Shown: positions 1 through 16,899 of the stretch, piece by piece | Position numbering within the stretch: the stretch's first letter is position 1 | How the letters are laid out: the number at the start of each line of letters is the position of its first letter | NCBI RefSeq assembly: GCF_002854065.1 | Contig: NZ_CP024154.1 | Direction: 5' to 3' (one strand) | Length of the DNA stretch: 64,000 nucleotides | Source: Escherichia coli | Lineage (GTDB): Bacteria > Pseudomonadota > Gammaproteobacteria > Enterobacterales > Enterobacteriaceae | Position numbers and translations under genes: made by a program | The notes under the pieces: model-generated | What the model was told of the DNA's origin: nothing | Seen by the model: only the letters and a program-made list of their open reading frames with translations | Databases searched by the model: none

Positions 1-66
1 TATGCGGTCGCCCGGTAACAGGTGCGGCACGGCCTGATGGAGGCCGCATGTGAGAGGAGAATTCCC

Positions 67-993
67 ATGCCAAACTGGTGCTCGAATCGTATGTATTTTT
101 CTGGTGAACCGGCACAGATCGCTGAGATTAAACGACTGGCCAGCGGTGCAGTTACACCGCTTTATCGCCGCGCCACAAATGAAGGTATTCAGCTGTTTCT
201 GGCCGGAAGTGCCGGACTTCTGCAGACCACTGAAGATGTGTGGTTTGAACCGTGCCCCGGACTGACGGCTGCCGGACGTGGCGTTGTATCGCCGGAGAAT
301 ATCGCGTTCACCCGCTGGCTGACACACCTGCAGAACGGTGTACTGCTGGATGAGCAAAACTGCCTGATGCTGCATGAACTCTGGCTGCAGAGCGGTACTG
401 GCCAGCGTCGCTGGGAAGGATTACCGGACGATGTCAGGGATACCATCACCGCGCTTTTCACCGCAAAAAGAGGTGACTGGTGTGGCTTCTGGAGTAACGA
501 GGATGTATCGGTGTGGTGGAACCGTCTGTGTGACAACGTACTGCCGGAAAAAACCATGCCGTTTGACCTGCTGACGGTTCTGCCCACCCGCCTTGATGTT
601 GAAGTGAATGGCTTTAACGGTGGTGTTCTGAACGGTGTTCCTTCTGCATATCACTGGTATACCGAACAGTATGGCGTGAAGTGGCCTTGTGGGTATGACC
701 TGAATATCAGCAGTCAGGGAGACAACTTCATTCAGGTTGATTTCGACACGCCGTGGTGTCAGCCGGAAAGCGACGTTATTGCAGAATTAAGCCGCCGTTT
801 CAGCTGCACGCTGGAGCACTGGTATGCCGAACAGGGCTGTGATTTCTGTGGCTGGCAGTTGTATGAGCGCGGAGAGCTCGTTGATGTGCTGTGGGGGGAG
901 CTGGAATGGTCTTCCCCGACAGATGACGATGAGCTGCCGGAAGTCACCGGACCTGCGTGGATAGTCGACAATGTGGCGCATTATGGCGGATGA
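67..993 (+). CDS. conserved leading-region protein of unknown function (about 308 aa; ORF open from window start, preferred start ATG 67)
   Basis: Long ORF with SD-like GAGAGGAGAA about 8 nt upstream of ATG 67; Trp/Cys-rich acidic protein; no catalytic motif recognised. Confidence 0.5.
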   Translation: MPNWCSNRMYFSGEPAQIAEIKRLASGAVTPLYRRATNEGIQLFLAGSAGLLQTTEDVWFEPCPGLTAAGRGVVSPENIAFTRWLTHLQNGVLLDEQNCLMLHELWLQSGTGQRRWEGLPDDVRDTITALFTAKRGDWCGFWSNEDVSVWWNRLCDNVLPEKTMPFDLLTVLPTRLDVEVNGFNGGVLNGVPSAYHWYTEQYGVKWPCGYDLNISSQGDNFIQVDFDTPWCQPESDVIAELSRRFSCTLEHWYAEQGCDFCGWQLYERGELVDVLWGELEWSSPTDDDELPEVTGPAWIVDNVAHYGG

Positions 994-1378
994 AGTATGA
1001 CGGAGACGGGCGGGCAACCGCCCGTTTCTTTTCCGGTAAAGGATGTCGCCGTGCTCCTCTTTATTACTGCGCCGGCTGACGCGGCGCGGCATAAACGCTG
1101 CCTGTGGTCAGTGTCCCGCGTCCGGCCGGGCACGGGACGGGCGCTTTTACCGCTCCCGGCTGGCGTCGGTGACAGTGTACGCCAGCCTGTCGCCCTTTTC
1201 TGATGAACGCCCTTCAAGCCGCTTTCGCGGCATAACCTTGCCGTCAAACAGACGACGGCTGCGGTATTCCACGGTCGGCCTGACCCGTTACCGGACGCGG
1301 TGAACAGCCCACAGGCAGCGGGGAACGGGCACCACAGGGGTGCCCTCCCGGTGCCCTCTGTAAGAGAAGGAGTTTTGT

Positions 1379-2062
1379 ATGTCCCGTTTTGTCCTCGGTA
1401 ACTGCATCGATGTTATGGCCCGTATCCCTGATAACGCCATTGATTTCATCCTCACCGACCCGCCGTACCTCGTCGGTTTCCGTGACCGTTCCGGGCGCAC
1501 CATCGCTGGCGATAAAACCGATGAATGGCTGCAACCGGCCTGTAATGAAATGTACCGCGTACTCAAAAAAGATGCGCTGATGGTCAGCTTCTATGGCTGG
1601 AACCGCGTCGATCGCTTTGTGGCCGCCTGGAAAAATGCGGGATTCAGCGTGGTTGGTCACCTGGTCTTCACCAAAAACTACACATCGAAGGCCGCATATG
1701 TGGGCTATCGCCACGAATGCGCCTACATCCTGGCAAAAGGCCGTCCACGTCTGCCACAAAACCCGCTGCCGGACGTGCTGGGCTGGAAATATTCGGGCAA
1801 TCGCCATCACCCGACGGAAAAGCCCGTTACCAGCCTGCAACCGCTGATTGAGAGCTTCACACACCCGAACGCAATTGTGCTGGACCCGTTTGCAGGCAGC
1901 GGCTCAACCTGCGTCGCCGCCCTCCAGTCCGGACGCCGGTATATCGGTATCGAGCTGCTTGAGCAGTATCACCGTGCCGGGCAGCAACGCCTTGCCGCCG
2001 TGCAACGGGCCATGCAGCAGGGGGCCGCGAATGATGACTGGTTTATGCCGGAGGCTGCGTAA
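1379..2062 (+). CDS. orphan DNA methyltransferase (N6-adenine/N4-cytosine type)
   Basis: DPPY motif (ILTDPPYLVGF) followed by FAGSGST AdoMet-binding motif; SD AGAAGGAG upstream; no adjacent restriction endonuclease. Confidence 0.8.
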   Translation: MSRFVLGNCIDVMARIPDNAIDFILTDPPYLVGFRDRSGRTIAGDKTDEWLQPACNEMYRVLKKDALMVSFYGWNRVDRFVAAWKNAGFSVVGHLVFTKNYTSKAAYVGYRHECAYILAKGRPRLPQNPLPDVLGWKYSGNRHHPTEKPVTSLQPLIESFTHPNAIVLDPFAGSGSTCVAALQSGRRYIGIELLEQYHRAGQQRLAAVQRAMQQGAANDDWFMPEAA

Positions 2063-2284
2063 ATGAACTATGCCGGACACGAAAAACTGCGCGCCGAAGT
2101 GGCGGAGGTGGCCAATGCCATGTGCGACCTGCGTACAACCATGAATGAGATGGAGCAGCGGTACAGCTTTAATGCCGACACCCTGCCGGAACGTCTGGTG
2201 CGTCAGACGCTGTTTCGCGCAAACCGCCTCCTGATGGAGGCATATACCGAAATTCTGGAACTGGATGCGTGCTTTAAAGATTGA
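2063..2284 (+). CDS. hypothetical small protein (73 aa), start abuts the methyltransferase stop
   Basis: ATG immediately after the TAA of the upstream gene (TAAATG); ORF only. Confidence 0.4.
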   Translation: MNYAGHEKLRAEVAEVANAMCDLRTTMNEMEQRYSFNADTLPERLVRQTLFRANRLLMEAYTEILELDACFKD

Positions 2285-2297
2285 GAAGGAGACGAGA

Positions 2298-2732
2298 ATG
2301 TACGGAACATGCGAAACGCTATGCCGGGAGCTGGCAGCAAAGTATCCGGGAGACACGCCGCTGATGCTGGTTATCTGGTCCCCGGAAGAAATTCAGGCCC
2401 TCGCTGACGGAATGGATATTTCCCTGTCCGATCATGAAATCAGGACTGTCCTGGCGCGCCTGGAGGACATCCCGGAAGACCAGCGGACTGAATCCGGTAT
2501 TTCTTCCGGTGCGGCGATGGAGATTATCAAATACGTGAGCGAAAACCGCCAGGTGACCGTCCCTGCTGAACTGCTGGCGTCCCTGATTCAGACCGCTGAA
2601 CAGGCACTGTGGAAACGTGAGTGGGCCGCCCGTGATAACGGCCTCGCCGTTCCGGAATGCGTCACCCGCCGACAGGCGGTGGTTAATCAGGCCCGCGCCC
2701 TGCTGAAAAACAACACACGCGAAAACGACTGA
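2298..2732 (+). CDS. hypothetical leading-region protein (145 aa), paralog of ORF 4435-4857
   Basis: SD GAGAAGGAGA upstream of ATG 2298; shares MY.T..E and R.VTVPA motifs with the 4435 product. Confidence 0.55.
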   Translation: MYGTCETLCRELAAKYPGDTPLMLVIWSPEEIQALADGMDISLSDHEIRTVLARLEDIPEDQRTESGISSGAAMEIIKYVSENRQVTVPAELLASLIQTAEQALWKREWAARDNGLAVPECVTRRQAVVNQARALLKNNTREND

Positions 2733-2776
2733 TGTTATCGCCGCCTCCGGGCGGCGATACAGGGAGACCATGAATC

Positions 2777-3547
2777 ATGAACGAAACGCTGAATGCACTG
2801 ATTTGTCGCCACGCCCGTAACCTGCTGCTGGCGCAGGGCTGGCCGGAAGAGACGGATGTTGACCAGCGAAATCCGAACTATCCGGGCTGGATCAGCATTT
2901 ACGTGCAGCTGGATGCGCCCCGGCTGGCGACGTTACTCGTTAACCGCCACGATGGCGTGCTGCCGCCGCACCTGGCCTCCGCCATTCAGAAACTGACCGG
3001 AACCGTGGCGGAACTTGTACTGTCCGGCAGCCAGTGGCAGGCGCTGCCGGTACTTCCGGCAGACGGAACGCAGGTGTCTTTCCCGTATGCCGGTGAATGG
3101 CTGACGGAGGAAGAAATCAGGGCCGTTCTTGATGCGGTGCACGATGCGGTACGCAGTGTCAGTTGCCGGGTGGCAGAAGATGCGCGGCGTATCAGGGCGG
3201 CGCTGACCACAACCGGTCAGACGTTGCTGACCCGCCAGACGCGCCGCTTTCGCCTGGTTGTGAAGGAAAGCGATTACCCCTGCTGGCTCGATGAAGACGA
3301 CGAAAACCTGCCCGTGGTGCTCGATGCCATCCTGAACCGGGGCGCTCGTTTTTCGTCGGTGGAAATGTATCTGGTCAGTGAGTGTGTGGAGCATATCCTG
3401 TCCAGTGGGCTGGCCTGCGATGTGCTGCGTATACCTGATGAACCGTCCCGTCGCTGGTTTGACCGGGATATTCTGCGGGAGGTGGTCCTGGAAGCCCGGA
3501 CTGAAATCCGCAGCATGGCGGATGCACTGGCGAAAATCCGGAAATGA
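2777..3547 (+). CDS. hypothetical leading-region protein (256 aa)
   Basis: Long ORF with SD AGGGAGA upstream; no recognised motif. Confidence 0.5.
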
Positions 3548-3619
3548 TGACGCTGGCGGGGAAAAATCTCCGCCTTTTCCAGCCGGTCCCCGGAAAGAGC
3601 AAAAGGATGTCGCCGCAGG

Positions 3620-3945
3620 CTCCGCTTTACCCGGCCATGCGGGGCATGGCCTTGTGGGTTTTCAGTTATGTGGCCTCAGCGCCGTGTGCGGGCTGTGCCG
3701 TGCCTCCATCGTAGCCGGGCTTCTGCGGGCGGGTTGCAAGGTAAGGTGAACCGCTGCGGTCACCCGGTCCCTCCTTCCCGTCTGCCGTGATTTTCCGGTC
3801 GTTCACCCGCTCAGATTTCGCGGTCTCACCCTTCAACTCCCGTCAGCCGTGCGCGTCAGGCTGCGGCTTCCCTTGCGCCCTTGCAACCCTGCAGGCCCGG
3901 CAAAGATGGAGGCACGGCACCGCCCGGTGTCGCGGAATATGTGAA
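3620..3945 (+). repeat. repeat family A copy 1: about 330-bp hairpin-rich element, putative single-strand promoter (Frpo/ssi-like)
   Basis: About 95 percent identical to 10567-10892; contains perfect hairpin GGCCATGC-GGG-GCATGGCC; ends about 20 nt before the klcA start. Confidence 0.6.
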
Positions 3946-3962
3946 CAACGGAGGAAAACATC

Positions 3963-4388
3963 ATGCAATATGCGAAACCTGTCACTCTGAACGTTGAAGA
4001 GTGCGACCGTCTGTCTTTTCTGCCTTACCTGTTTGGCCTGGATTTTCTGTATGCCGAAGCGTCTGTATACGCGCTGGCGAAAAAAATGATGCCGGAATAT
4101 GAAGGCGGATTCTGGCACTTCATCCGCCTGCCGGACGGTGGCGGTTACATGATGCCGGATGGCGACCGTTTCCACATGGTGAACGGTGCAAACTGGTTTG
4201 ACCGTACCGTGAGTGCTGATGCCGCAGGCATCATCCTTACCTCCCTTGTGATTAACCGCCAGTTGTGGCTGTACCACGACAGCGGGGATGCAGGGTTGAC
4301 ACACCTGTACAGGATGCGTGATGCGCAGTTGTGGAGCCACATCGAATTTCACCCCGAATGCAACGCGATTTACGCGGCACTTGACTGA
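3963..4388 (+). CDS. klcA: anti-restriction protein, KlcA/ArdB family
   Basis: 141-aa protein with KlcA/ArdB-like sequence and size; SD GGAGGA upstream; leading-region context. Confidence 0.75.
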
Positions 4389-4434
4389 TTAACGGACGGG
4401 GCGGCAATGCCGCCCCTGTAAAGGAGACGAGAAC

Positions 4435-4857
4435 ATGTACTGTACTGTTAAAGAAATCATCCGCGATGTACTGGATACAGACGTGCCGGACAGTGAATGC
4501 GTTTTTGCCGTGGTGCTGACCCGTGGGGATGTGCGTCACATAGCCCGGGACTGGAACCTGTCAGACGATGAGCTGGAAACCGTCATGCAGCGGCTGGACG
4601 ATGCTTTTGTATATGGCGCATGTGACAGAGTTGTTTCCGATATTGTCAATGAACTGATGGAAGAAAAGCGCGCCAGCCGTCATGTGACAGTCCCGGCGGT
4701 GATGCTGGAAAAAGTGATGGCGCTGGCAGGTAGTGAAATGAAGCGCCTGTATGCCGTCGGGAGTGAGAACGGGGGCGACGGTGACGCATTCGTCAGGGAG
4801 GAACTCGAAGCAATGGACGTTGTGTTGCAGGCGCTGGACGGGGAGACGATGTCATGA
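4435..4857 (+). CDS. hypothetical leading-region protein (140 aa), paralog of ORF 2298-2732
   Basis: SD AAAGGAGA upstream; shared MY.T..E, LSD.E..TV..RL.D and R.VTVPA motifs with the 2298 product. Confidence 0.5.
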   Translation: MYCTVKEIIRDVLDTDVPDSECVFAVVLTRGDVRHIARDWNLSDDELETVMQRLDDAFVYGACDRVVSDIVNELMEEKRASRHVTVPAVMLEKVMALAGSEMKRLYAVGSENGGDGDAFVREELEAMDVVLQALDGETMS

Positions 4858-5045
4858 ATATCAGCACAGAAACCCGCGAAATTCTGCGTAATTACAGGGC
4901 CGTGATTAATGCGCGGCGTCGTGAAATGGGGCAGAAACCGCTCACCACCGCGCAGATTGTTGATGAAATCTGCGATTTTGTGGCGAATCAGCAGGCGGTT
5001 TTCCTGGGCGGTCACTACATCCTTCAGGGCAGCAGAAACAGGTGA
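4854..5045 (+). CDS. hypothetical small protein (63 aa), start overlaps upstream stop (ATGA)
   Basis: ORF with translational coupling only. Confidence 0.35.
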   Translation: MNISTETREILRNYRAVINARRREMGQKPLTTAQIVDEICDFVANQQAVFLGGHYILQGSRNR

Positions 5046-5248
5046 TACAGGGGCAGGCGGTGGAGGCCGCCTGTCAGCCCGCGCGAAAACCCCTGGCAGG
5101 CTGACGCCTGCCGGAAACGAGGGGGGCAGCGCCTGCGGCGCTGCCGGCCCGGCTTTCCGGTCAGAAGGTAGTGTATGGCTGTATGCAGGGAACAGGAGTG
5201 ATATTCCGTGACACTGTCACCGTTTCTGGCTGTCTTTTATTGCGCCCA

Positions 5249-5745
5249 CTTCGGCTCCCGGCTGCCTGGCGGCATCCGGTCGTCAGGCCCGACTCCGACG
5301 GGCAGCTGCTGGCGCACCCGCCAGTCTCCGCCGAACCCGCTGGCGCGGTTTCGGGCTGCCGCTACGGTCCGATGCGTGAAAACCCGGCTTGCAGCGACCG
5401 TTCCGGTCGCGCCGCCCCTGTCGCGCCGTGACCTGCGCTCCCTGCACACCTGACGGTGTGTGAGGAAACTGCGCCTGATGGCGCAGCAGTCCTCCCTCCT
5501 GCCGCCACTCCTGCGGCCTGTTTCCCGCTGTGGACTTTCCGGGGGGCAGACGTAACCCCCTCCCGTTCCATCTGTCCAGGGTGAGATGCACCGGCCACAA
5601 AATTTTTAGCCATGAACCCGGCAAAAAATTTTGCGTCCGCCCCCGGACAGCTGCCCCGTGAGGCGGTAAACGGGCCCCCATCGGAAAGGTCCACTGCGGG
5701 GAGAAACCCCTGTGAAGTGGACGGCAGGAGGAGCTTTCGCTCCTC
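5249..5745 (+). repeat. repeat family B copy 1: about 500-bp hairpin-rich element, putative single-strand promoter/ssi
   Basis: Near-identical to 11592-12090 and partially to 14681-15010; multiple perfect hairpins (GCGACCG-TTC-CGGTCGC, ACACC-TGAC-GGTGT); ends about 70 nt before ssb. Confidence 0.6.
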
Positions 5746-5814
5746 TGAAGGGGCACATGAACGTCCCGTCGCCGGTATCCGGTTTATCTCACATCTTTCA
5801 GTCAGGAGGTTCTT

Positions 5815-6342
5815 ATGAGTGCACGTGGTATCAACAAGGTCATCCTCGTCGGGCGTCTGGGCAATGATCCGGAAGTCCGTTACATCCCCAACGGGGGCGC
5901 AGTGGCAAACCTGCAGGTGGCTACGTCAGAAAGCTGGCGCGACAAACAGACGGGGGAAATGAAGGAACAGACGGAATGGCACCGCGTGGTGCTGTTCGGC
6001 AAGCTCGCGGAAGTGGCTGGCGAATATCTGCGCAAGGGCGCGCAGGTCTACATCGAGGGGCAACTCCGTACCCGTAGCTGGGAAGATAACGGTATCACCC
6101 GTTACGTCACTGAAATTCTTGTTAAGACCACGGGCACCATGCAGATGCTGGGGAGTGCACCACAGCAGAACGCTCAGGCGCAACCGAAGCCTCAGCAGAA
6201 TGGGCAGCCACAGAGTGCTGACGCGACGAAAAAAGGTGGCGCGAAAACGAAAGGCCGTGGACGTAAGGCCGCGCAGCCCGAGCCTCAGCCGCAAACGCCG
6301 GAGGGGGAGGATTACGGGTTTTCAGACGACATCCCGTTCTGA
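5815..6342 (+). CDS. ssb: plasmid single-stranded DNA-binding protein
   Basis: OB-fold SSB N-terminus ([18 protein letters not shown]), Gly/Gln/Pro-rich linker and acidic C-terminal DDIPF tail; SD AGGAGG. Confidence 0.92.
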
Positions 6343-6393
6343 TCGGGCTGACTGTGACAACCGCCCCGCCCTGTGCGGGGCATCACCGGAGAT

Positions 6394-6633
6394 ATGAGGA
6401 TGAGCGAATATTTCAGAATACTTCAGGGACTGCCGGACGGCTCCTTTACCCGCGAACAGGCGGAAGCCGTTGCCGCACAGTACCGGAACGTCTTTATCGA
6501 GGATGATCAGGGAACGCATTTTCGCCTGGTTGTCCGCAATAACAGTGGTCTGGTCTGGCGTACCTGGAATTTTGAGGACGGTGCCGGGTACTGGATGAAC
6601 CATGCCATCCGTGATTTCGGGATTCTTAAGTAA
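6394..6633 (+). CDS. hypothetical small leading-region protein (about 79 aa)
   Basis: ORF with ATG at 6394/6400 and purine-rich upstream sequence. Confidence 0.45.
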
Positions 6634-6691
6634 GAGAGGTGCCGGACGCGCGAACGTCCGGCAGGACATAAGCAATTATAAGGGGATGATT

Positions 6692-8650
6692 ATGCCTGTA
6701 ACGAAGTGTGAACCAGAAACCACCCGCAAAGCAAGCCGTAAATCTGCAAAAACGCAGGAAACTGTCCTGTCTGCCCTGCTGGCGCAGACGGAGGAAGTGA
6801 GCGTGCCGCTGGCCTCGCTGATTAAATCACCGCTGAATGTGCGCACGGTGCCGTATTCTGCGGAGTCCGTCAGCGAACTGGCTGAGTCCATTAAGGGCGT
6901 TGGCCTGTTGCAGAATCTGGTCGTGCATACTCTGCCTGGTGACCGTTACGGTGTCGCCGCAGGTGGTCGCCGACTGGCTGCACTCAACATGCTGGCAGAG
7001 CGTGGCATCATTCCGGCTGACTGGCCTGTCCGTGTGAAGGTCATTCCGCAGGAGCTGGCGACGGCGGCATCAATGACTGAAAACGGTCATCGTCGGGATA
7101 TGCACCCTGCTGAACAGATTGCCGGATTCCGCGCAATGGCGCAGGAAGGCAAAACACCTGCACAAATCGGTGATTTGCTGGGCTATTCACCCCGCCACGT
7201 TCAGCGAATGCTGAAACTGGCTGACCTTGCGCCTGTCATCCTCGATGCGCTGGCAGAAGACCGCATCACCACCGAACACTGTCAGGCGCTGGCGCTGGAG
7301 AACGACACCGCGCGTCAGGTGCAGGTGTTTGAAGCTGCCTGTCAGTCGGGATGGGGCGGAAAACCGGATGTGCGGGTTATCCGCAATCTGATTACGGAAA
7401 GTGAAGTGGCGGTGGCGGGGAACAGTAAATTCCGCTTCGTGGGGGCTGATGCCTTCTCGCCAGACGAACTGCGCACCGATTTGTTCAGCGACGACGAGGG
7501 TGGCTATGTGGACTGCGTGGCGCTCGATGCCGCCCTGCTGGAAAAACTCCAGGCTGTCGCAGAGTTCCTTCGGGAAGCCGAAGGCTGGGGATGGTGCGCC
7601 GGACGCATGGAGCCTGTCGGTGAGTGCCGTGAGGATGCCGGAACATACCGCAACCTGCCGGAGCCGGAAGCGGTGCTGACCGAGGCGGAAGAAGAACGTC
7701 TGAACGAACTGATGACGCGTTACGACGCGCTGGAAAACCAGTGTGAGGAATCTGACCTGCTGGAAGCAGAAATGAAGCTGATGCGCTGCATGGCGAAGGT
7801 CAGAGCGTGGACGCCGGAGATGCGTGCCGGAGGTGGCGTGGTGGTGTCCTGGCGTTATGGCAATGTGTGTGTCCAGCGTGGTGTGCAGTTGCGCAGTGAG
7901 GATGATGCGGCTGACGACGCTGACCGCACGGAACAGGTGCAGGAAAAAGCATCAGTGGAGGAAATCAGTCTGCCACTGCTGACGAAAATGTCTTCCGAAC
8001 GCACGCTGGCAGTCCAGGCAGCACTGATGCAGCAACCGGACAAATCCCTGACACTGCTGGCATGGACGCTCTGCCTGAATGTGTTTGGCAGCGGAGCGTA
8101 CAGTAAACCAGCACAAATCAGCCTGGAATGTAAACATTATTCGCTGACCAGCGATGCGCCATCGGGGAAGGAAGGTACCGCATTCATGGCGCTGATGGCA
8201 GAAAAAGCCCGTCTTGCTGCCCTGTTACCGGAGGGATGGTCACGGGACATGACGACATTCCTGTCACTCAGTCAGGAGGTGCTGTTATCCCTGCTGAGTT
8301 TCTGCACCGCATGCAGCCTTAACGGTGTCCAGACCCGTGAGTGTGGTCACACGTCACGCAGTCCGCTTGACACGCTGGAAACCGCTATCGGATTCCACAT
8401 GCGCGACTGGTGGCAGCCGACAAAAGCAAACTTCTTCGGACACCTGAAAAAGCCGCAGATTATCGCAGCTCTGAATGAGGCAGGACTGTCCGGTGCCGCA
8501 CGGGATGCGGAGAAGATGAAGAAAGGCGATGCGGCTGAACATGCAGAGTTCCACATGAAAGACAACTGCTGGGTGCCTGGCTGGATGTGTGCACCACGTC
8601 CACAGACGGATACCACTGAACGCACCGATAACCTGGCTGATGCCGCCTGA
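6692..8650 (+). CDS. ParB-like nuclease-domain protein (about 653 aa)
   Basis: N-terminal ParB/Srx-like region (LIKSPLNVR, GLLQNLVV, AGGRRLAAL, HRRDMHPAEQ); long acidic C-terminal extension; between ssb and psiB. Confidence 0.7.
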   Translation: MPVTKCEPETTRKASRKSAKTQETVLSALLAQTEEVSVPLASLIKSPLNVRTVPYSAESVSELAESIKGVGLLQNLVVHTLPGDRYGVAAGGRRLAALNMLAERGIIPADWPVRVKVIPQELATAASMTENGHRRDMHPAEQIAGFRAMAQEGKTPAQIGDLLGYSPRHVQRMLKLADLAPVILDALAEDRITTEHCQALALENDTARQVQVFEAACQSGWGGKPDVRVIRNLITESEVAVAGNSKFRFVGADAFSPDELRTDLFSDDEGGYVDCVALDAALLEKLQAVAEFLREAEGWGWCAGRMEPVGECREDAGTYRNLPEPEAVLTEAEEERLNELMTRYDALENQCEESDLLEAEMKLMRCMAKVRAWTPEMRAGGGVVVSWRYGNVCVQRGVQLRSEDDAADDADRTEQVQEKASVEEISLPLLTKMSSERTLAVQAALMQQPDKSLTLLAWTLCLNVFGSGAYSKPAQISLECKHYSLTSDAPSGKEGTAFMALMAEKARLAALLPEGWSRDMTTFLSLSQEVLLSLLSFCTACSLNGVQTRECGHTSRSPLDTLETAIGFHMRDWWQPTKANFFGHLKKPQIIAALNEAGLSGAARDAEKMKKGDAAEHAEFHMKDNCWVPGWMCAPRPQTDTTERTDNLADAA

Positions 8651-8704
8651 TGAACAACCACACCGCCCCGCCGGAGACGGGGCGGCAGCAAGGGAGATAC
8701 CGTG

Positions 8705-9139
8705 ATGAAAACTGAACTGACCCTGAATGTATTACAGACCATGAGTGCACAGGAATATGAAGATATCCGGGCTGCCGGAAGTGATGAACGCCGTGAGCTG
8801 ACACACGCCGTGATGCGGGAACTGGATGCGCCGGACAACTGGACGATGAATGGCGAGTACGGCAGCGAGTTCGGCGGCTTTTTCCCCGTCCAGGTCCGTT
8901 TCACGCCTGCCCACGAACGTTTTCACCTGGCGTTATGTTCACCGGGCGATGTCTCTCAGGTCTGGGTGCTGGTTCTGGTGAATGCCGGTGGTGAGCCGTT
9001 TGCGGTGGTTCAGGTGCAGCGGCGGTTTGCACCGGAAGCTGTCAGCCATTCACTGGCACTGGCGGCGTCACTGGATGCGCAGGGGTACAGCGTTAACGAC
9101 ATCATTCATATCCTGATGGCGGAAGGAGGTCAGGCATGA
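8705..9139 (+). CDS. psiB: plasmid SOS inhibition protein B
   Basis: 144-aa product; position immediately upstream of and overlapping psiA; SD AGGGAGA. Confidence 0.85.
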
Positions 9140-9855
9140 GCGCACGTTCACGGGCACTGATCCCCCTCAGCGCAGAACAACAGGCCGCCATGCAGGCGGT
9201 GGCTGTCACAGAACAACGTCGTCGTCAGGGACGCACACTTTCAGCATGGCCTTATGCCACCGCTTTCTTTCGCTGCCTGAATGGCAGTCGCCGGATTTCG
9301 CTGACCGATCTCCGCTTTTTTGCCCCTGCGCTGACGAAGGAGGAATTTCATGGCAACCGTCTCCTGTGGCTGGCTGCCGTGGATAAACTGATTGAAAGTT
9401 TTGGGGAAGTCTGTGTTCTTCCCCTGCCATCCGATGCGGGGCACCGTCTGTTCCCGTCCCTGCCTTTTCGTGAAGGTGAGCGTCGTCGTCAGAAAACCAC
9501 GCTGACAGAGCAGAAATACAGCCGCCAGCGGGAACGTGAGGCAGAACGACGGGAACTGGAATACCAGACATGTTTTGCTCAGGCGCAGATTGACCTTGCG
9601 TTTCATACTCCCGCCACGGTCGGAAGCTGGTTGTCCCGCTGGTCTGGTGTTGTTGAGGAGCATGATCTGGAAACGATTTTCTGGGGGTGGTGCGGGCGTT
9701 TTCCATCACTGTCATCATTTGACCGGTTTTTCTGGCAGGAGGAACCACTCTGGCGGCTGATTTTTGAAGCCGGTGAGGCCGGTCGTGGTGCACCGGTACA
9801 GGTACGTGCACTTGAGCAGTGGATGATCCCGAACAAGCTGGAGAACGTAATATGA
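9136..9855 (+). CDS. psiA: plasmid SOS inhibition protein A
   Basis: 239-aa product, start overlaps psiB stop (ATGA); typical psiB-psiA pair. Confidence 0.85.
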
Positions 9856-10448
9856 TGAAATCAGACGAAAAATACCAGGTTCCCGCGTGGATGCGACCTC
9901 TGTTGCCGTTGCTCTGCAACACCGGGGGGAACGATCCGGAAGAACTGCTGAATGATACAGAAACCACTGCCAGTGCGAATGTTGTCCGTTATGTACTGAT
10001 AGTTGCTGTGCGGTCGCAGGTTGATCTGCTGCAGCTTCTGTACAGGAAAGGGCTGTTGCGCACAGAGATACCAGGTGGCTTTTCACCGGAAGAAGCGCAG
10101 GCACTCCTGGATAATCTGGTGCGCAGCCATATCAGCAGGGCGCTGTCGGGCGAGCGAATGGCAGCCCGTGACAGAAATGCCGATCTGGCCTGGATTGGAC
10201 AGCAACTGGTCGATGCCGCCTGGTTTGTCCGTGCCACACTGGAAGCGCATGGGATGAGCGTCGGAAATGAGAGCCCCCCTGCTCCGCCGGAGACAATGCC
10301 GGACATACAGACACGGGAACTGGTTATGTTGATCAAGCGACTGGCATCATCGCTGAAAGCGGTGAAACCCGACAGTAGCGTGGTGCGTGAAGCGCAGGAC
10401 TGGCTGTGCGACAGAAAACTTGTGGATATCACAGATATTCTCCGGTGA
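9852..10448 (+). CDS. hypothetical leading-region protein (198 aa)
   Basis: ATG 9852 overlaps psiA stop; SD GGAGAA upstream; no recognised motif. Confidence 0.5.
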   Translation: MMKSDEKYQVPAWMRPLLPLLCNTGGNDPEELLNDTETTASANVVRYVLIVAVRSQVDLLQLLYRKGLLRTEIPGGFSPEEAQALLDNLVRSHISRALSGERMAARDRNADLAWIGQQLVDAAWFVRATLEAHGMSVGNESPPAPPETMPDIQTRELVMLIKRLASSLKAVKPDSSVVREAQDWLCDRKLVDITDILR

Positions 10449-10566
10449 ACCAGACATGTATATTTTACGCAGGGACACGCCGATCATGATCGTTTCATAT
10501 CAGGGGTGGTCTGGAGGTCATGCGGCGTGTCCTCTGCACTCGCCGGAATAAGGAAGTCGCCGGCGG

Positions 10567-10892
10567 CTCCGCTTTTACCCGGCCATGCGGGGCATGGCCT
10601 TGTGGGTTTTCAGTTATGTGGCCGCCGTGTCGTGTGCGGGCTGTGCCGTGCCTCCATCGTAGCCGGGCTTCTGCGGGCGGGATGCAAGGTAAGATGAACC
10701 GCTGCGGTCACCCGGTCCCTCCTTCCCGTCTGCCGTGATTTTCCGGTCGTTCACCCGCTCAGATTTCGCGGTCTCACCCTCCAACTCCCGTCAGCCGTGC
10801 GCGTCGGGCTGCGGCTTTCCTTGCGCCCTTGCATCCCTGCAGGCCCGGCAAAGATGGAGGCACGGCACCGCCCGGTGTCGCAGAACATGTGA
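10567..10892 (+). repeat. repeat family A copy 2, putative single-strand promoter
   Basis: About 95 percent identical to 3620-3945; ends immediately upstream of the ardA SD. Confidence 0.6.
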
Positions 10893-10909
10893 CTATGGAG
10901 GATTCGGGA

Positions 10910-11410
10910 ATGTCTGTTGTTGCACCTGCTGTATACGTTGGAACCTGGCACAAATACAACTGTGGAAGCATCGCCGGACGCTGGTTTGACCTGACCACGT
11001 TTGATGATGAGCGCGACTTTTTCGCCGCCTGCCGTGCTCTTCACCAGGATGAAGCCGATCCTGAACTGATGTTTCAGGATTATGAGGGATTCCCGGGGAA
11101 TATGGCCTCTGAATGTCATATCAACTGGGCCTGGGTTGAAGGCTTCCGCCGGGCACGGGATGAAGGCTGCGAAGAGGCTTATCGTCTCTGGGTGGATGAT
11201 ACCGGTGAGACGGATTTTGACAGCTTCCGCGATGCCTGGTGGGGCGAGGCTGACAGTGAGGAGGCTTTTGCGGTTGAGTTCGCCAGTGATACCGGCCTGC
11301 TGGCTGACGTGCCGGAGACGGTGGCGCTCTATTTTGACTATGAGGCGTATGCGCGGGATTTATTCCTGGACTCCTTCACCTTTATTGACGGTCATGTGTT
11401 CCGTCGGTGA
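10910..11410 (+). CDS. ardA: anti-restriction protein ArdA (DNA mimic)
   Basis: 166-aa highly acidic protein (MSVVAPAVYVGTWHKYNCGSIAGRWFDL...); SD GGAGGA; leading-region position. Confidence 0.88.
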   Translation: MSVVAPAVYVGTWHKYNCGSIAGRWFDLTTFDDERDFFAACRALHQDEADPELMFQDYEGFPGNMASECHINWAWVEGFRRARDEGCEEAYRLWVDDTGETDFDSFRDAWWGEADSEEAFAVEFASDTGLLADVPETVALYFDYEAYARDLFLDSFTFIDGHVFRR

Positions 11411-11591
11411 TTTACTCCCCCGCTCCGGCGGGGGTATGGCCTGCCAGGCCGCCGGAAAACCCTGGCAGGCTTACGCCTGCCTGAAATGCAGGAGGGCCGC
11501 GCCTGCGGCGCTGCCCTTCCTGCCCGTCATGGTGTGAGGCATTTTTCTGTTATGTCGTTTCTGTTGTTCTGATTTCCGGAGGCGGGGACAC

Positions 11592-12090
11592 CTTCGGCTC
11601 CCGGCTGCCTGGCGGCATCCGGTCGTCAGGCCCGACTCCGACAGGCAGCTGCTGGCGCACCCGCCAGTCTCCGCCGAACCCGCTGGCGCGGTTTCGGGCT
11701 GCCGCTACGGTCCGATGTCTGAAAAACCAGGCTTGCAGCGACCGTTCCGGTCGCGCCGCCCCTGTCGCGCCGGAAACGGCGCTCCCTGCACACCTGACGG
11801 TGTGTAAGGCCACTGCGCCTGATGGCGCAGTTGTCTGCCCTTCCGCCGCCCCCCCTGCGGCCTGTTTCCCCGCTGTGGACTTTCCGGGGGCTGAAGCGGC
11901 CACAACACGTTTCAGCCGTCCAGGGGAGAGATGTACCAGCCACAAAACTTTTTGCCGCAGGCGTCAAAAACTTTTGCGTCTGCCCCCGGACAACTGCCCC
12001 GTGCCGTGGCAGTCGCTGCCCTATCGGAAAGGTCCACTGCGGGGAGAAACCCCGAAGAAGTGGACGGCAGAAGGGGCTTTCGCCCCTCCG
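11592..12090 (+). repeat. repeat family B copy 2, putative single-strand promoter
   Basis: Near-identical to 5249-5745; ends about 50 nt before ORF 12143. Confidence 0.6.
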
Positions 12091-12142
12091 GGGGAGCAAC
12101 CGGTCGGCCCGGCGACCTGATTCAGCAGAAGGAGACGTTTTC

Positions 12143-12577
12143 ATGACAGTCAGCAGCACGATTTCCGTTTTTTGCCGCGACGGGGTGTTCCGTACCGTTT
12201 ACTGCCACCTGCACGGTGAGCCGACCTGGAACGGTCGCATCCTGCATACCCACTATGCCACTGGTCAGCAGGCCGAAGCCCTGGTTGAACACGGTGATAT
12301 CCGTTGCCTCGGTCCCCGTTGCGACAAACCCGCCGGGCATACGCTTCAGAACCCGGTGGACGGTGTGACGGCTTATTACGGACGTGACAGTGGTTTCCGG
12401 ATGGACAGTGAGGCGCGTGAGTACCGTTCTTTCAGGGAGGCCATCGCCACGGAAAGCACTGAAGAGGTGCGCTTCCATTATGTGTTCATCGACGGCTACT
12501 GGAAGGTGATGTACCGCACGCCGGAAGGCTGGAAGATGAAGTCGCTTGCGCTGGCACTGCGCCGCTGTCCGAAATGA
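12143..12577 (+). CDS. hypothetical protein (144 aa) directly downstream of repeat B2
   Basis: SD AAGGAG 7 nt upstream of ATG; Cys/His-containing; rho-independent terminator hairpin downstream (about 12579-12606). Confidence 0.55.
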   Translation: MTVSSTISVFCRDGVFRTVYCHLHGEPTWNGRILHTHYATGQQAEALVEHGDIRCLGPRCDKPAGHTLQNPVDGVTAYYGRDSGFRMDSEAREYRSFREAIATESTEEVRFHYVFIDGYWKVMYRTPEGWKMKSLALALRRCPK

Positions 12578-12669
12578 AAAAAAGGCAGGGCGATAAACCC
12601 TGCCTCTCTCCGCCGCTGCTTCCCGGCCAGGAAGAGCGGCAGTCATCAACAACATAAGGAGAAATATTT

Positions 12670-12936
12670 GTGAGACCATCAATTATCTTTGCAACGGCTG
12701 AATATGTAAAGCGTCTGCGTGAAGAGTGCCTGCGGGAGAATAAACCCCTGCACCGCCATACCCGCTTCAGACGTCAGGAGCTGGCACAGGATGAGATTAA
12801 CCCGGACGTCCTGGCGATGAGCAGTCATATCGCCAGACGCTGCAGTAAGCAGAAGCGGGTGCGTATCCCCGCGATGAAAGCCAGCGAATGGGGCCACCTG
12901 CTCCGCGCGCTTGAAATTGAGCGGGTCTGCCACTGA
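12670..12936 (+). CDS. hypothetical small basic protein (88 aa, GTG start)
   Basis: ORF only; Arg/Lys-rich. Confidence 0.3.
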   Translation: MRPSIIFATAEYVKRLREECLRENKPLHRHTRFRRQELAQDEINPDVLAMSSHIARRCSKQKRVRIPAMKASEWGHLLRALEIERVCH

Positions 12937-13000
12937 TTAACCCTTGCCGTCTGCCTGTGCAGGCGGCAGGATACGTTCAGACATCTCACCAGGAGGAACC

Positions 13001-13951
13001 GTGAGTAAGAAGAAAAACACCACAACGCCCACGCCGCATGATGCCGCGTTCCGGTCGTTCCTGGCGAATCCCGACGTTGCCAGGGATTTTCTGGAACTGC
13101 ATCTTCCTGCGGAGCACCGGCAGTTGTGCGACCTGTCCACGCTGAAGCTGGAACCCGCCACCTTTGTTGAGCCGGACCTGCATCAGTACGCCAGCGATAT
13201 CCTCTGGAGCGTGAAAACCACCGGGGGTGAAGATGGTTATGTTTATACGCTCATCGAGCACCAGAGCACAGAAAATCTGTACATGCCTTTTCGCATGTTA
13301 CGCTACAGTGTGGCGGCGATGCAGAGACATCTGGAGCAGCACAAAACGTTGCCACTGGTGATTCCGGTGCTGTTCTATCACGGTGAGCGCAGCCCGTACC
13401 CGTACAGCATGAACTGGCTGGACTGTTTTGAGAATCCGGCACTTGCGGCTAAAATATACACAAAGCCGTTTCCGCTGGTTGATATCACTGTCGTTGATGA
13501 CAATGAAATCATGAACCATCGCCGGATGGCCGCACTGACGCTGCTGATGAAGCATATCCGCCATCGTGACATGATGGAGCTGCTGGACAAACTCCCGCAG
13601 GTCATGGTGGAAATTTCAGATGAACAGGTGCGTGTTCTGATTCATTACATCGTTAACGCAGGGGACTCTGTATCACCGGAATTTATGCGGGCGCTGGCTG
13701 AGCGTCTGCCGCAGCATGAGGATAAACTGATGACTATCGCAGAACGTCTTGAGCAAAAAGGTCGCCAGGAAGGCAGGATGGAAGGACGCATGGAAGGACG
13801 CATGGAAGGACGCATGGAAGGACGCATGGAAGGAGCGCTTGAAAAAGCCCTGGCTATTGCGTGCCAGCTTCAGAAAATGGGGATGACGCCGGAGCAGATT
13901 AAGCAGGCTACCGGACTTTCCGATGACGAACTGAAGAACATCACTCACTGA
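13001..13951 (+). CDS. Rpn-family (YhgA-like, transposase_31) PD-(D/E)XK recombination-promoting nuclease
   Basis: N-terminal YhgA-like motifs (HDAAFRSF, ASDILW, YTLIEHQS); SD CAGGAGGA before GTG 13001; C-terminal tail carries (EGRM)n repeat; terminator hairpin at about 13963-13990. Confidence 0.75.
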   Translation: MSKKKNTTTPTPHDAAFRSFLANPDVARDFLELHLPAEHRQLCDLSTLKLEPATFVEPDLHQYASDILWSVKTTGGEDGYVYTLIEHQSTENLYMPFRMLRYSVAAMQRHLEQHKTLPLVIPVLFYHGERSPYPYSMNWLDCFENPALAAKIYTKPFPLVDITVVDDNEIMNHRRMAALTLLMKHIRHRDMMELLDKLPQVMVEISDEQVRVLIHYIVNAGDSVSPEFMRALAERLPQHEDKLMTIAERLEQKGRQEGRMEGRMEGRMEGRMEGRMEGALEKALAIACQLQKMGMTPEQIKQATGLSDDELKNITH

Positions 13952-14013
13952 TGAGAACCACAAAGCCCGGCAAAATGCCGGGTTTTTTTGTCAGCAGGAG
14001 CAGAGCAAACAGC

Positions 14014-14196
14014 ATGACGATTGCAGAACGTCTTATACAGAAAGGTTTCGACGAAGGTTTTAAGAAAGGTGCGCTTGAAGTGGCGCGGGAAGCAGCCTGC
14101 CGGCTGCGGGATATGGGCTGGACGCCGGAACGGATTCAGGAGGCAACCGGACTTTCCGGTGAAGAACTGAAAAAGCTGTTTCCTGATGAGCAGTAG
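14014..14196 (+). CDS. free-standing paralog of the Rpn C-terminal tail domain (60 aa)
   Basis: MTIAERLIQKG...TPERIQEATGLSGEELKKLF aligns with the Rpn tail MTIAERLEQKG...TPEQIKQATGLSDDELKNI; weak SD; hairpin terminator downstream. Confidence 0.45.
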   Translation: MTIAERLIQKGFDEGFKKGALEVAREAACRLRDMGWTPERIQEATGLSGEELKKLFPDEQ

Positions 14197-14226
14197 CCTG
14201 GCATTCTGCCAGGCTGTGAATCACGC

Positions 14227-14478
14227 TCACACATTCCCTGCCGTTTCCCCCAGTTCATTTTCCAGTCGCCTGATGATATCTGCCTTACGCATCCCCTGCA
14301 TGTGAGGCAGCAGGTCACGGACTGAAAGTGCCTGGGTGGTCCTCCAGACGGTGACATCCACCTGTTCCGCATTTTCCCAGGCGTGCCATGTTCTCTGTGT
14401 CACGCCAAATTCTCTGGCCGCTTTTTCGCGTGACCAGAGCATGCTTTTTCGCCAGATTCGCAGTTCCCAGCCGGTCAT
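14227..14478 (-). CDS. helix-turn-helix (XRE/Cro-like) transcriptional regulator (83 aa)
   Basis: HTH signature SREKAAREFGVTQRTWHAWE; AT-rich upstream region with GTGAA-N5-TTCAC inverted repeat. Confidence 0.55.
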   Translation of the reverse strand: MTGWELRIWRKSMLWSREKAAREFGVTQRTWHAWENAEQVDVTVWRTTQALSVRDLLPHMQGMRKADIIRRLENELGETAGNV

Positions 14479-14680
14479 AAAACACCTTTGAAAAAGTGAA
14501 AAAACTTCACTTTATTTTATCATCATAGTCACCAAGTCAGCGCGATAAATAAGAGTGAAAAAGTAAAGAAATTTCATTTTTTTTAGTTGTAGGTGTCGTG
14601 CTGTTTTCTCTGTTTTCACCTGTGCGGGAGTGGGCGTCAGTGACCACCACATGCCATTGTTGTGCCGTCGTTTTTCTTCA

Positions 14681-15010
14681 GTCGCGCCGGATGCGGCGCT
14701 CCCTGCACACCTGACGGTGTGTAAGGCCACTGCGCCTGATGGCGCAGCTGTCTCTGCCTGTCTGCCGCCGCACTGCGGCCTGTTCTCCGCAGACGGACTT
14801 TCCGGGGGTGCATACACGACCACATCCCGTTTCAGTCGTCCAGGGGAGAGATGTACCAGCCACAAAACTTTTTACCGCAGGCGTCAAAAACTTTTGCGTC
14901 TGCCCCCGGACAACTGCCCCGTGACGTGGTGAGCGTCCCCCGTCGGAAAGGTCCACTGCGGGGAAATCCCCGAAGACCCGGACGGCAGAAGGAGCTTCGC
15001 TCCTCCGGGA
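14681..15010 (+). repeat. repeat family B copy 3 (5'-truncated), putative single-strand promoter
   Basis: Matches the 3' two-thirds of copies B1/B2; ends about 45 nt before ORF 15057. Confidence 0.55.
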
Positions 15011-15056
15011 AATGACCTGGCTGACCCGGCAGTCGTGACGATGAGGAGACAATGTG

Positions 15057-15905
15057 ATGAATCAGACTTTACCCACTGCTGACCTGAATACTGCCGGCAC
15101 GACAGATGTTATTCTGTCTGTGGCTATCGACCGCATCATAGCGCAGCGTAACGAAGGTATTGCACTGTTCATGCAGGCGATGGAATGCCTGGCGACAGCG
15201 CGCAGGATTCTGCTCGATGCTTCCGGTGACATTTTTCTCTACGGGTTTGAAGACTGCGTGACTGACTCCGTTCGGTGCATGGATAAACCGGAAGAAGCAA
15301 AAAAGAATATCACCCGTCTTGCCGACCGGAAAATCTGGGATCGCCTGATGACGGATACTGGCATGTACACCTTCATGAGTTCATGCCAGCGTGATGAGTG
15401 GAACAGCCAGCTGATGAGCGACACCTGTCCTGAAATCACCCTGGACAATGTACTGGCAACTTTTCGCTATCTGAATGCCAGCAAGATGCGGACGTTTGAA
15501 CAGGGACTGATTGATGTCTGGCGGAAATTGTCATGGGATTACAGAACCAATAATCCCTGCCGTCTGGGCAAGAAAATCATTATTGAAAACCTGCTGTACC
15601 GCTGGAGTAACGGGCGTGTGACGCTGGACTGCAGCGGACGGGAGGCACTGGATGACCTGGTATGTCCGTTTTATCTACTGGAGGGACGCAACGTTCCTGA
15701 CTTCAGGAACAGCATCGGGGCGCAGTATGGTGAATATCTCGGGAACGGCGATAATGTCGGTAAGCTGTTAGAAGGGGAATATTTTACGGTGCGTGGCTAC
15801 CAGAAAGGGACCGTACACATTGTCTTTAAGCGTCCTGACCTTGTTGAAAAACTGAATGATATTATTGCACGGCATTATCCTGGTGCATTGCCGCCACGAG
15901 TCTGA
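15057..15905 (+). CDS. hypothetical protein (283 aa); oriT-proximal plus-strand gene of the leading region
   Basis: SD GAGGAG 7 nt upstream of ATG 15057; directly behind repeat B3; terminator hairpin at about 15911-15945. Confidence 0.55.
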   Translation: MNQTLPTADLNTAGTTDVILSVAIDRIIAQRNEGIALFMQAMECLATARRILLDASGDIFLYGFEDCVTDSVRCMDKPEEAKKNITRLADRKIWDRLMTDTGMYTFMSSCQRDEWNSQLMSDTCPEITLDNVLATFRYLNASKMRTFEQGLIDVWRKLSWDYRTNNPCRLGKKIIIENLLYRWSNGRVTLDCSGREALDDLVCPFYLLEGRNVPDFRNSIGAQYGEYLGNGDNVGKLLEGEYFTVRGYQKGTVHIVFKRPDLVEKLNDIIARHYPGALPPRV

Positions 15906-15989
15906 TTAAACAGAAAAGCCCTGGTATTTATGCCGGGGCTTTTTTTCTGTAATCATCATAATCTCAGAACACGATGTGACATTGTCACA

Positions 15990-16331
15990 TCAATTGTTGT
16001 TCATATCGATGCCATCTTTCCTGCCTGAATCTGTCTTTTTAGGTGCTGTTTTAGAGGAAGAACGGCGGGATGGTTTTTTCGATTCTGCTTCCCGAATAAT
16101 GTCACGAAGTGCTTTCTCTCCTACTTCATACCCTGCATTTTTGAGCGTGTCACGAACATCTGCCAGTGTATAACCCTTTGTCCTTACCAGGACAATGATG
16201 TCATCACGAATGGCATCAAGAAAATCACGCAATGTTTTCCGTTGAGCGGTGAGGTCCGGCAATTCCGATAAGGCAGCTTTTGCCAGCTGGATGTCATCAT
16301 CTGAGTAAAATTTTTTAGAAGCCATTGGCAC
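15990..16331 (-). CDS. hypothetical small basic protein next to oriT (possible DNA-binding protein)
   Basis: ORF of 113 aa with Lys/Arg/Ser-rich C-terminus; stop codon lies within a perfect 20-bp palindrome. Confidence 0.4.
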   Translation of the reverse strand: MPMASKKFYSDDDIQLAKAALSELPDLTAQRKTLRDFLDAIRDDIIVLVRTKGYTLADVRDTLKNAGYEVGEKALRDIIREAESKKPSRRSSSKTAPKKTDSGRKDGIDMNNN

Positions 16332-16439
16332 TTTCTCTCTGTTTTATGTTGAAGCCTGATTTTATCACCAAAACTGCCCCTGGCAGGGCTGCGCCCTGCC
16401 TCTGCCGTCTGCATAAGACTATGATGCACAAAAATAACA

Positions 16440-16545
16440 GGCTATAATTGACCGAAAAACGGGACAGGATGTGGGAATGTCGGACCGCGCACGCGCACTC
16501 AGACATTCCCCACCTGGTCAGGGCTTTGCCCCGACACCCCGGTAA
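16440..16545. other. oriT: origin of transfer (oriT) with inverted repeats, immediately upstream of nikA
   Basis: GGGAATGTC...GACATTCCC inverted repeat flanking a GC-rich core, plus GGTCAGGGCTTTGCCCCGAC; position and orientation relative to nikA-nikB and the leading region. Confidence 0.65.
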
Positions 16546-16555
16546 GGAGCAGACC

Positions 16556-16888: not shown

Positions 16889-16899
16889 GATAACTGCTG

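Follow-up and report, generated by a model that had tools for sequence, protein, structure and literature searches.

M.EcoGIX is described as a promiscuous, single-strand N6-methyladenine (m6A) methylase that is produced from the incoming strand and confers protection from restriction by the recipient (PMC7736820, PMC4288162). On plasmid pESBL, the starts of the class-3 single-stranded DNA (ssDNA) promoter of M.EcoGIX and of the class-2 ssDNA promoter of klcA have been mapped by rapid amplification of cDNA 5' ends (5'RACE) by Yamaichi and colleagues (PMC12672017). According to the same report, both promoter classes are conserved in F, and the M.EcoGIX operon of pESBL and F is strongly induced in transconjugants at 15 min. 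The publications on this early operon discuss the methylase and, in the parts available to us, give no analysis of the three cistrons downstream. We have analyzed the corresponding genes in a 64,000-nt stretch of Escherichia coli DNA (contig NZ_CP024154.1 of assembly GCF_002854065.1; hereafter the window), where a block of three open reading frames (ORFs) encodes YubE, a DUF1380 protein (YubF) and YubG.

In our reading, these ORFs would be cistrons 2-4 of a four-gene early operon (M.EcoGIX methylase, YubE, DUF1380/YubF and YubG). With a probability of about 0.55, we favor the view that they are expressed as a burst at plasmid entry and that their products are binding proteins in establishment or anti-defence, with YubE working with the methylase.

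The proposed methylase operon and its predicted single-stranded DNA promoter

The three ORFs run head to tail on the + strand between a methylase gene (1379-2062) and klcA (3963-4388). ORF1 (2063-2284, 73 aa, acidic) is YubE, also known as YfcA, pESBL Hp9 and pMS7163B "950". ORF2 (2298-2732, 144 aa, all-alpha, isoelectric point [pI] 4.7) is the DUF1380 protein YubF, also called YfcB, YcgB, pESBL Hp10 and pMS7163B "940", and ORF3 (2777-3547, 256 aa, two alpha/beta domains, pI 5.2) is YubG, also YfdA, YchA and pESBL Hp11. The TAA stop codon of the methylase gene (2060-2062) directly abuts the ATG of ORF1 at 2063 (gap 0), the following gaps measure 13 nt (ORF1-ORF2) and 44 nt (ORF2-ORF3), and every ORF start has a GGAG-type ribosome-binding site. 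The tight packing and good ribosome-binding sites reported in an earlier note on this DNA are thus all present, and the neighbors that it had named were borne out. The first gene of the operon (yfbB, + strand) encodes an M.EcoGIX-type orphan single-strand-specific adenine methyltransferase (PF01555, E = 3.8e-40; NF010253, E = 1e-150), whose 227 aa are identical to pESBL M.EcoGIX at 216 positions, and klcA, also on the + strand, is an anti-restriction gene of the klcA/ardB type (PF03230, E = 2.4e-26). The note had treated the ORFs as a free-standing block; they appear instead to be the distal cistrons of the M.EcoGIX early operon.

The region immediately upstream of the methylase gene (994-1378, - strand) was predicted to fold as a T-strand hairpin region with a free energy (dG) of -107 kcal/mol (z = -7.25 vs. 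shuffled sequences). With the pESBL segment that precedes M.EcoGIX it shares 98.2% identity, and the first gene is likewise that of the early operon of pESBL and F. By folding and homology, it would be the class-3 ssDNA promoter of the methylase operon. A second T-strand hairpin region (3548-3962, - strand; dG = -104 kcal/mol, z = -4.15), which has 92.6% identity with the segment preceding klcA in pESBL, would likewise be the class-2 ssDNA promoter of the klcA operon and would mark the end of the methylase operon. Given the homology of the upstream hairpin to a mapped pESBL promoter, the products of ORFs 1-3 most likely appear as a burst in the recipient, right after plasmid entry. No sigma-70-like double-stranded DNA promoter site was detected in 900-6000, and no Rfam family in positions 1-17000 of the window. 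In vegetative cells with pMS7163B, the DUF1380 gene gave a threshold cycle (Ct) of ~31 compared with ~24 for repA, that is, ~6.5-7 cycles or roughly 100-fold lower expression (PMC10286972).

The following course of events may be proposed. In conjugation, the - strand of the window would enter the recipient first, as ssDNA, and 994-1378 would fold into a large hairpin that acts as a promoter in single-stranded form only; the operon would therefore be transcribed as a burst in the new host and silenced upon synthesis of the complementary strand. Such a burst from the incoming single strand, within the M.EcoGIX operon, is well supported by the promoter homology described above, and we keep it as a predicted property of the window copy.

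A GC-rich stem-loop lies between the DUF1380 gene and yubG (2736-2759, + strand; dG = -22.8 kcal/mol, z = -4.4). It consists of UAUCGCCGCC-UCCG-GGCGGCGAUA, with a stem of 9-10 bp placed just after the DUF1380 stop codon and with no T-tract. A hairpin of different sequence occupies the equivalent place in seven other cassettes of our comparison (L004, L010, L011, L013, L014, L015 and L020), and GC hairpins precede yubG even in a locus that has no DUF1380 gene (L007). The element may have a role in mRNA stability or attenuation.

Within the class-3 ssDNA promoter hairpin, RefSeq places a "hypothetical protein" of 103 aa (pESBL 54394-54705, corresponding to 997-1303 of the window). The DNA of the window is 98.2% identical over this segment, yet the frame is split into ORFs of 68 and 86 aa. 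The RefSeq call is probably a spurious gene laid over a structured non-coding element.

Families, conservation and modularity

The G+C-rich DNA of the window contains many long chance ORFs on other frames, and ORF length alone is therefore no proof of coding. The frames of ORFs 1-3 are intact in four of four comparator plasmids (three IncI-gamma/K1 and one IncF). Pairwise Nei-Gojobori estimates of the ratio of nonsynonymous to synonymous substitution rates (dN/dS) were 0.18 for ORF1 (IncF comparison only), 0.20-0.37 for ORF2 and 0.23-0.27 for ORF3, with 0.05-0.11 for the methylase gene and 0.07-0.09 for klcA. Diverged homologs, with 25-63% identity, retain length, gene order and neighborhood. 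By these measures, ORFs 1-3 are intact, conserved genes under purifying selection.

The earlier note had called the ORFs unknown and without recognisable function. The latter is correct, yet all three belong to named families (PF27407 YubE, DUF1380 and RefSeq "YubG family protein") that are well catalogued in thousands of plasmids, which had been overlooked. Pfam, NCBIfam, PHROGs and PADLOC searches of the block returned only DUF1380 and PHROGs of "unknown function". The PHROG memberships probably stem from misclassified plasmid sequence, since neither ORF2 nor ORF3 had a tblastn match among 50,697 phage genomes. Sequence and profile searches of the PDB with ORFs 1-3 and the paralog described below gave nothing below E = 0.009, with chance-like matches only. 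Homology to partition (ParA/ParB/ParM) or pilus/type IV secretion proteins, which would have spoken against the interpretation of the earlier note, was found for none of the three ORFs in family, profile or structure searches. The literature searched for the gene names and for DUF1380 yielded no functional study.

All three products are acidic (pI 4.7-5.2) and hydrophilic. In the invariant columns of their families, hydrophobic residues, Gly/Pro, Arg, Glu and Trp predominate and a catalytic His/Cys/Ser/Lys set is absent, which favors binding proteins over enzymes.

YubE is the member most closely linked to the methylase. A direct Pfam scan of ORF1 with a Pfam copy that does not include the PF27407 model gave no family at E up to 0.1; PF27407 is precomputed on cluster representatives 99-100% identical to ORF1, and also on the 73-aa gene that follows the methylase in six diverged loci. 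YubE has an invariable length of 73 aa and no indels, at 44-78% identity. It was seen only together with the methylase, in seven of seven methylase-bearing contexts and in neither of the two lineages that have no methylase, and in each of those seven contexts its start abuts or overlaps the methylase stop. YubE, which would be translationally coupled to the methylase, is tied to it and probably works with it.

ORF2 matches PF07128 over the whole model (positions 1-137 of 137; E = 1.1e-53, 181.4 bits with a gathering cut-off of 26). The program-made ORF list offers an earlier ATG at 2265, and family alignments and the ribosome-binding site support the start at 2298. The AlphaFold2 model of ORF2 has six helices, with a predicted local distance difference test score (pLDDT) of 79.6 and a predicted template-modelling score (pTM) of 0.51, and a structure search with it returned only generic helical-hairpin matches. 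An acyl carrier protein-like reading of ORF2 (PF00550) was considered and rejected because the score lies below threshold (14.5 bits, cut-off 20.8) and the serine needed for phosphopantetheine attachment is not conserved: after the invariant glycine of ORF2, one homolog has Thr at this position, and the paralogs have Cys or Asp.

The product of 4435-4857 (+ strand, 140 aa, pI 4.3), known as YubJ, YfeC, YcgC and pMS7163B "910", is a diverged relative of ORF2. It scores 17.5 bits against PF07128, below the cut-off of 26, and carries the RefSeq name DUF1380 family protein. The duplicated family proposed in the earlier note was confirmed by the pairwise and profile comparisons that it had suggested, with 26% identity to ORF2 over 116 aa in BLASTP (E = 2e-7) and a probability of 93.6% between the two families in hhalign (E = 2e-7, 113 columns). 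The shared motifs listed there hold in part: R.VTVPA is found in both proteins, and the N-terminal motif is reduced to MY.T (MYGTCET in ORF2, MYCTVKE in the paralog). A ribosome-binding 13-mer, AAGGAGACGAGAA, is also common to both genes (2286-2298 and 4421-4433, + strand); it occurs exactly twice in the 64 kb, once at the start of each paralog, with 0 occurrences expected by chance. From these comparisons, we take the 4435 product to be a true distant paralog of ORF2, in a diverged sister family, and the duplication to include the translation-initiation region.

ORF3 had no match in NCBIfam release 20. Its homolog in a block that is 97.4% identical in DNA is annotated as "YubG family protein". 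The AlphaFold2 model of YubG shows a confident, well-packed, two-domain fold. A Foldseek search of this model against viral structures gave a best E-value of 1.2e-3, to an uncharacterized 114-aa phage protein, and neither the YubG nor the DUF1380 model had informative structural neighbors. Three proposals for YubG were examined and set aside. An internal duplication obtained an hhalign probability of 0.6% between the N and C halves. The ArdA label found in Table S1 of Samuel et al. was accompanied by no PF07275 match and a probability of 0.2%, and a relationship with KlcA/ArdB by no PF03230 match and a probability of 1%, with a short WFDR match only. This tetrapeptide is common to RRWFDRD in YubG (3440-3455) and NWFDRT in KlcA (4190-4205), and in YubG it falls in the most conserved loop, R.P..P.R.WFDR. 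As the profile comparison was not significant, the sharing of WFDR is probably due to chance.

We have compared diverged loci, with diverse YubG homologs collected in an exhaustive search of 1.84 billion representatives; word-indexed homolog searches and tblastn against plasmids had been dominated by near-identical copies. Only 182 YubG-family clusters were found among these, many of them fragmentary; the DUF1380 and YubE searches gave 514 and 191 clusters, respectively, from Enterobacterales only among the matches listed. Five loci (L010, L011, L013, L014 and L015; YubG 39-63% identical to that of the window) have the order methylase-YubE-DUF1380-YubG, with KlcA next where the contig continues. 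Another (L007; YubG about 45%) has methylase-YubE-YubG, with no DUF1380 gene. A lone YubG behind its own T-strand hairpin is found upstream of KlcA in L005 (z = -6.4; YubG 29%) and upstream of ArdA in L008 and L009 (z = -3.35; YubG 25%). All three ORFs evolve much faster than the methylase in the diverged loci, where identities are 80-99% for the methylase, 44-77% for YubE, 31-55% for DUF1380 and 39-63% for YubG. By this pattern, YubE is tied to the methylase, DUF1380 and YubG are separable, faster-evolving modules, and YubG is autonomous. In four of the metagenomic contigs with distant yubG genes (L005, L008, L009 and L010), a homolog of the DNA polymerase III theta subunit (HolE, PF06440) lies downstream of ardA/klcA; it is not present at the equivalent place in the window.

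Leading-region setting and distribution

The layout of the window matches the pESBL map and, judged by gene content and order, is that of the leading region of an I-complex/IncF-type conjugative plasmid. To the right of klcA come ssb, a DUF905 gene, a ParB-like gene, psiB, psiA, nikA and the relaxase gene. Of these, psiA (PF06952) lies at 9136-9855 on the + strand, and psiB was assigned by synteny with the annotated best-match plasmid. The relaxase side is formed by nikA (PF21983) and a MobA/VirD2-type relaxase gene (16900-19611), which together span 16448-19611 on the + strand towards oriT. The origin of transfer lies just left of nikA, and the block is ~13-14 kb into the first-transferred DNA, with klcA, ssb, psiB and psiA standing between it and nikA/relaxase. 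For all of these leading-region genes, the transferred (-) strand is the template.

Three other features of this region were recorded. A DUF1281/Api92-like protein (308 aa, pI 4.3, 10 Cys, 17 Trp; family 27 in Samuel et al.) is encoded at 67-993, upstream of the methylase promoter, and belongs to a further large, uncharacterized family of leading regions. The ParB-like gene (6602-8650, 682 aa) belongs to the YfjB family, recently renamed HerB; according to a 2026 preprint, HerB is a CTP-binding clamp and, after entry, reprograms the transcription of the host (PMC13370423). At 5050-5810, upstream of ssb, there is a long non-coding segment rich in G+C, in the place where one would expect Frpo/ssi-type (class 1) ssDNA promoters.

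Matches to the 1485-bp block, at 90-99% identity, were obtained in at least 5000 PLSDB plasmids, mostly conjugative ones, of Escherichia, Klebsiella, Salmonella and Shigella, and the wider stretch 1379-4857 was matched in 3824 of 5426 complete E. coli genomes, nearly always on plasmids. The closest match to the window copy is a Shigella sonnei IncI-gamma/K1 plasmid (97%), and the same gene order is found in MOBP/MPF_I and MOBF/MPF_F plasmids, including IncF. In R64/pS261, pESBL-EA11 and F, the same genes follow the same methylase in the same order, and the window differs from them only allelically, by 3-10% in DNA; protein identities of ORF1, ORF2 and ORF3 to pESBL Hp9, Hp10 and Hp11 are 100%, 93% and 90%, respectively. 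The R64-style names yfcA, yfcB and yfdA are annotated in LC567096; the F-style names come from Pfam (YubE, PF27407) and RefSeq ("YubG family protein"), plus the UniProt names in Table S1 of Samuel et al.

Samuel et al. (2024; PMC11541004, Supplementary Table 1) list YfcA, DUF1380 and YchA/YubG as families 11, 7 and 10 by size. Families 7, 10 and 11, with 3957, 3556 and 3388 members, are given there as uncharacterized, and the family of the 4435-4857 paralog is family 14. All three families are enriched in leading regions (false discovery rate-corrected p given as 0) and lie in the T-strand-expressible orientation, at median gene positions 18-20 from oriT. The tentative labels attached to them, "adenine-specific methyltransferase" for DUF1380 and "ArdA" for 10 of the 3556 YubG members, are carry-over from neighboring or fused genes. 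The block is thus already known as a set of catalogued, uncharacterized families, and the window copy is no new variant and holds no information beyond the published catalogues.

Possible roles of the three proteins

We infer that the three proteins most likely act by binding partners, not as enzymes. DUF1380 and YubG would help the incoming plasmid to establish itself, most likely by overcoming host restriction or other defences together with the methylase and KlcA, and all three proteins would be conditionally useful, not essential. With KlcA/ArdB and ArdA they have in common the island, the early single-strand-driven expression and the acidic character, and YubG homologs stand immediately upstream of klcA/ardA wherever the downstream flank was recovered.

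Published work on pMS7163B (PMC10286972) bears directly on these genes. By coordinates and sequence, we have matched its locus tags 950 to YubE (77% identity), 940 to DUF1380 (97%), 930 to a YubG remnant (the first 23 aa only) and 910 to the paralog at 4435 (89%). According to that report, an outward promoter in 950::Cm raises 940 and 930 expression about 1000-fold, and the plasmid does not conjugate and is out-competed, whereas 930/940 expressed in trans cause no growth defect. The insertions 910::Cm and ardB::Cm lower transfer only when TOP10 (hsd-minus) is the donor and J53 (EcoKI-plus) the recipient. This anti-restriction-like phenotype belongs to the paralog, not to ORF2, and is described with no complementation in the text of the report available to us. 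Taken together, the published phenotypes show that the genes are dispensable in laboratory conditions, that their mistimed expression is harmful, and that the DUF1380 paralog acts like an anti-restriction factor.

Several points weigh against the establishment and anti-defence reading. The three proteins have no sequence, profile or structural similarity to KlcA/ArdB or ArdA, nor any resemblance to known anti-defence proteins (the hhalign probabilities vs. ArdA and KlcA are those given above, 0.2% and 1%). An establishment or anti-defence function is something that we infer for ORFs 1-3, the only anti-restriction-like phenotype in the gene family being that of the 4435 paralog, through pMS7163B 910. 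Co-transcription with the methylase follows from spacing, synteny and a published figure, not from per-gene expression data. In pESBL transposon-insertion sequencing (TnSeq), Hp9, Hp10 and Hp11 score as non-essential (1.00) for maintenance and transfer, and a clean 950 deletion conjugates as the wild type in an EcoKI-matched cross (PMC10286972). In pMS7163B itself, yubG has been lost through a deletion of 571 bp with a copy of GGGCTGGCC at either end (window equivalent 2845-3415); the corresponding copies in the window yubG lie at 2836-2844 and 3407-3415. Finally, the effect of forced 940/930 expression could equally mean a role in plasmid DNA processing or an artefact of read-through transcription. 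The anti-defence island of the earlier note therefore stands in part: the leading region is rich in anti-defence genes and one family is duplicated within it, but ORFs 1-3 themselves are dispensable for maintenance and transfer in published laboratory crosses, and their role is unproven.

The pMS7163B copy of yubG (L019, 12463-12864) keeps its first 23 codons, fused out of frame, and represents a natural knockout in a circulating plasmid.

Besides the reading that we prefer, it is possible, though distinctly less probable, that YubE, and perhaps DUF1380/YubF, serve the single-strand methylase as accessory or regulatory subunits and are not independent effectors. Their part could be to modulate its activity, to direct it to the entering strand or DNA polymerase I (Pol I), or to keep harmful over-methylation in check. 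The junction of the YubE start with the methylase stop in every methylase-bearing context examined, the fixed length of 73 aa with no indels and the absence of YubE from both methylase-less lineages all fit such a role. Fomenkov et al. (PMC7736820) describe M.EcoGIX activity as dependent on association with Pol I, and they found over-methylation to be harmful, which makes a small partner protein plausible. However, cloned M.EcoGIX, expressed alone in artificial constructs, methylates in vivo according to the same source, and YubE is therefore not required for methylase activity. In the EcoKI-matched cross described above, conjugation is unchanged when the YubE homolog is cleanly deleted, YubE evolves 3-5 times faster than the methylase, which is unusual for an obligate subunit, and DUF1380 and YubG are lost or found independently of the methylase.

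Less probable again, at odds that we would call low, is that the proteins act on the early DNA transactions of the plasmid or on host physiology, and not on defence systems. Conversion from single to double strand, the timing of early expression or a HerB-like reprogramming of the host would be examples. When cis-expression of the DUF1380 gene and the yubG remnant is forced in donors, conjugation is abolished and the plasmid is out-competed (PMC10286972), and the lack of a growth defect in trans suggests that the effect of cis-expression is plasmid-directed. Moreover, the neighbor YfjB/HerB is a host transcription reprogrammer, not an anti-defence factor, and ssDNA promoters also control conversion timing. 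Against this, neither TnSeq nor the clean deletion revealed an effect on transfer or maintenance, family and structure searches detected no DNA-binding fold or motif, all three proteins are acidic, and the cis-overexpression phenotype may stem from read-through into the klcA promoter hairpin. That the block is hitch-hiking or decaying sequence with no selected function, kept between useful genes, is largely refuted and very improbable: its dispensability in laboratory assays, the natural yubG deletion in pMS7163B and a dN/dS higher than that of the methylase and klcA would agree with it, but across IncI-complex and IncF plasmids the frames are unbroken and dN/dS stays well below 1, length, motifs and setting persist in homologs of as little as 23-30% identity, the YubG fold is confident and well packed, and each of the three families shows strong leading-region enrichment.

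Within the establishment and anti-defence reading, we tentatively suggest, as a minority expectation, that YubG is a new kind of early-entry inhibitor of host defence, and/or that DUF1380 paralogs are co-factors of plasmid anti-restriction. The former is suggested by its confident two-domain fold with no solved or viral neighbor and by its occurrence as an autonomous, hairpin-driven module beside ArdA/KlcA. The latter is suggested by the placement of one paralog after each anti-restriction effector, the methylase and KlcA. KlcA/ArdB reportedly blocks type I restriction in vivo and not in vitro, which a DUF1380 co-factor might explain.

The present analysis contributes a consolidated map of names and phenotypes, a pattern of modularity in which YubE is tied to the methylase and YubG is autonomous, and confident models that have no informative neighbors. 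Sequence matching the block and its neighbors occurs in about 70% of complete E. coli genomes, and the block rides on plasmids that spread extended-spectrum beta-lactamase and carbapenemase genes. Its proteins, apparently made in the first minutes after plasmid entry, are among the largest uncharacterized plasmid gene families, and its value is that of a reasonable experimental target. Should one or other of them prove to disarm a host barrier or to control establishment, it would offer a target against the spread of resistance plasmids and would represent a new anti-defence mechanism.

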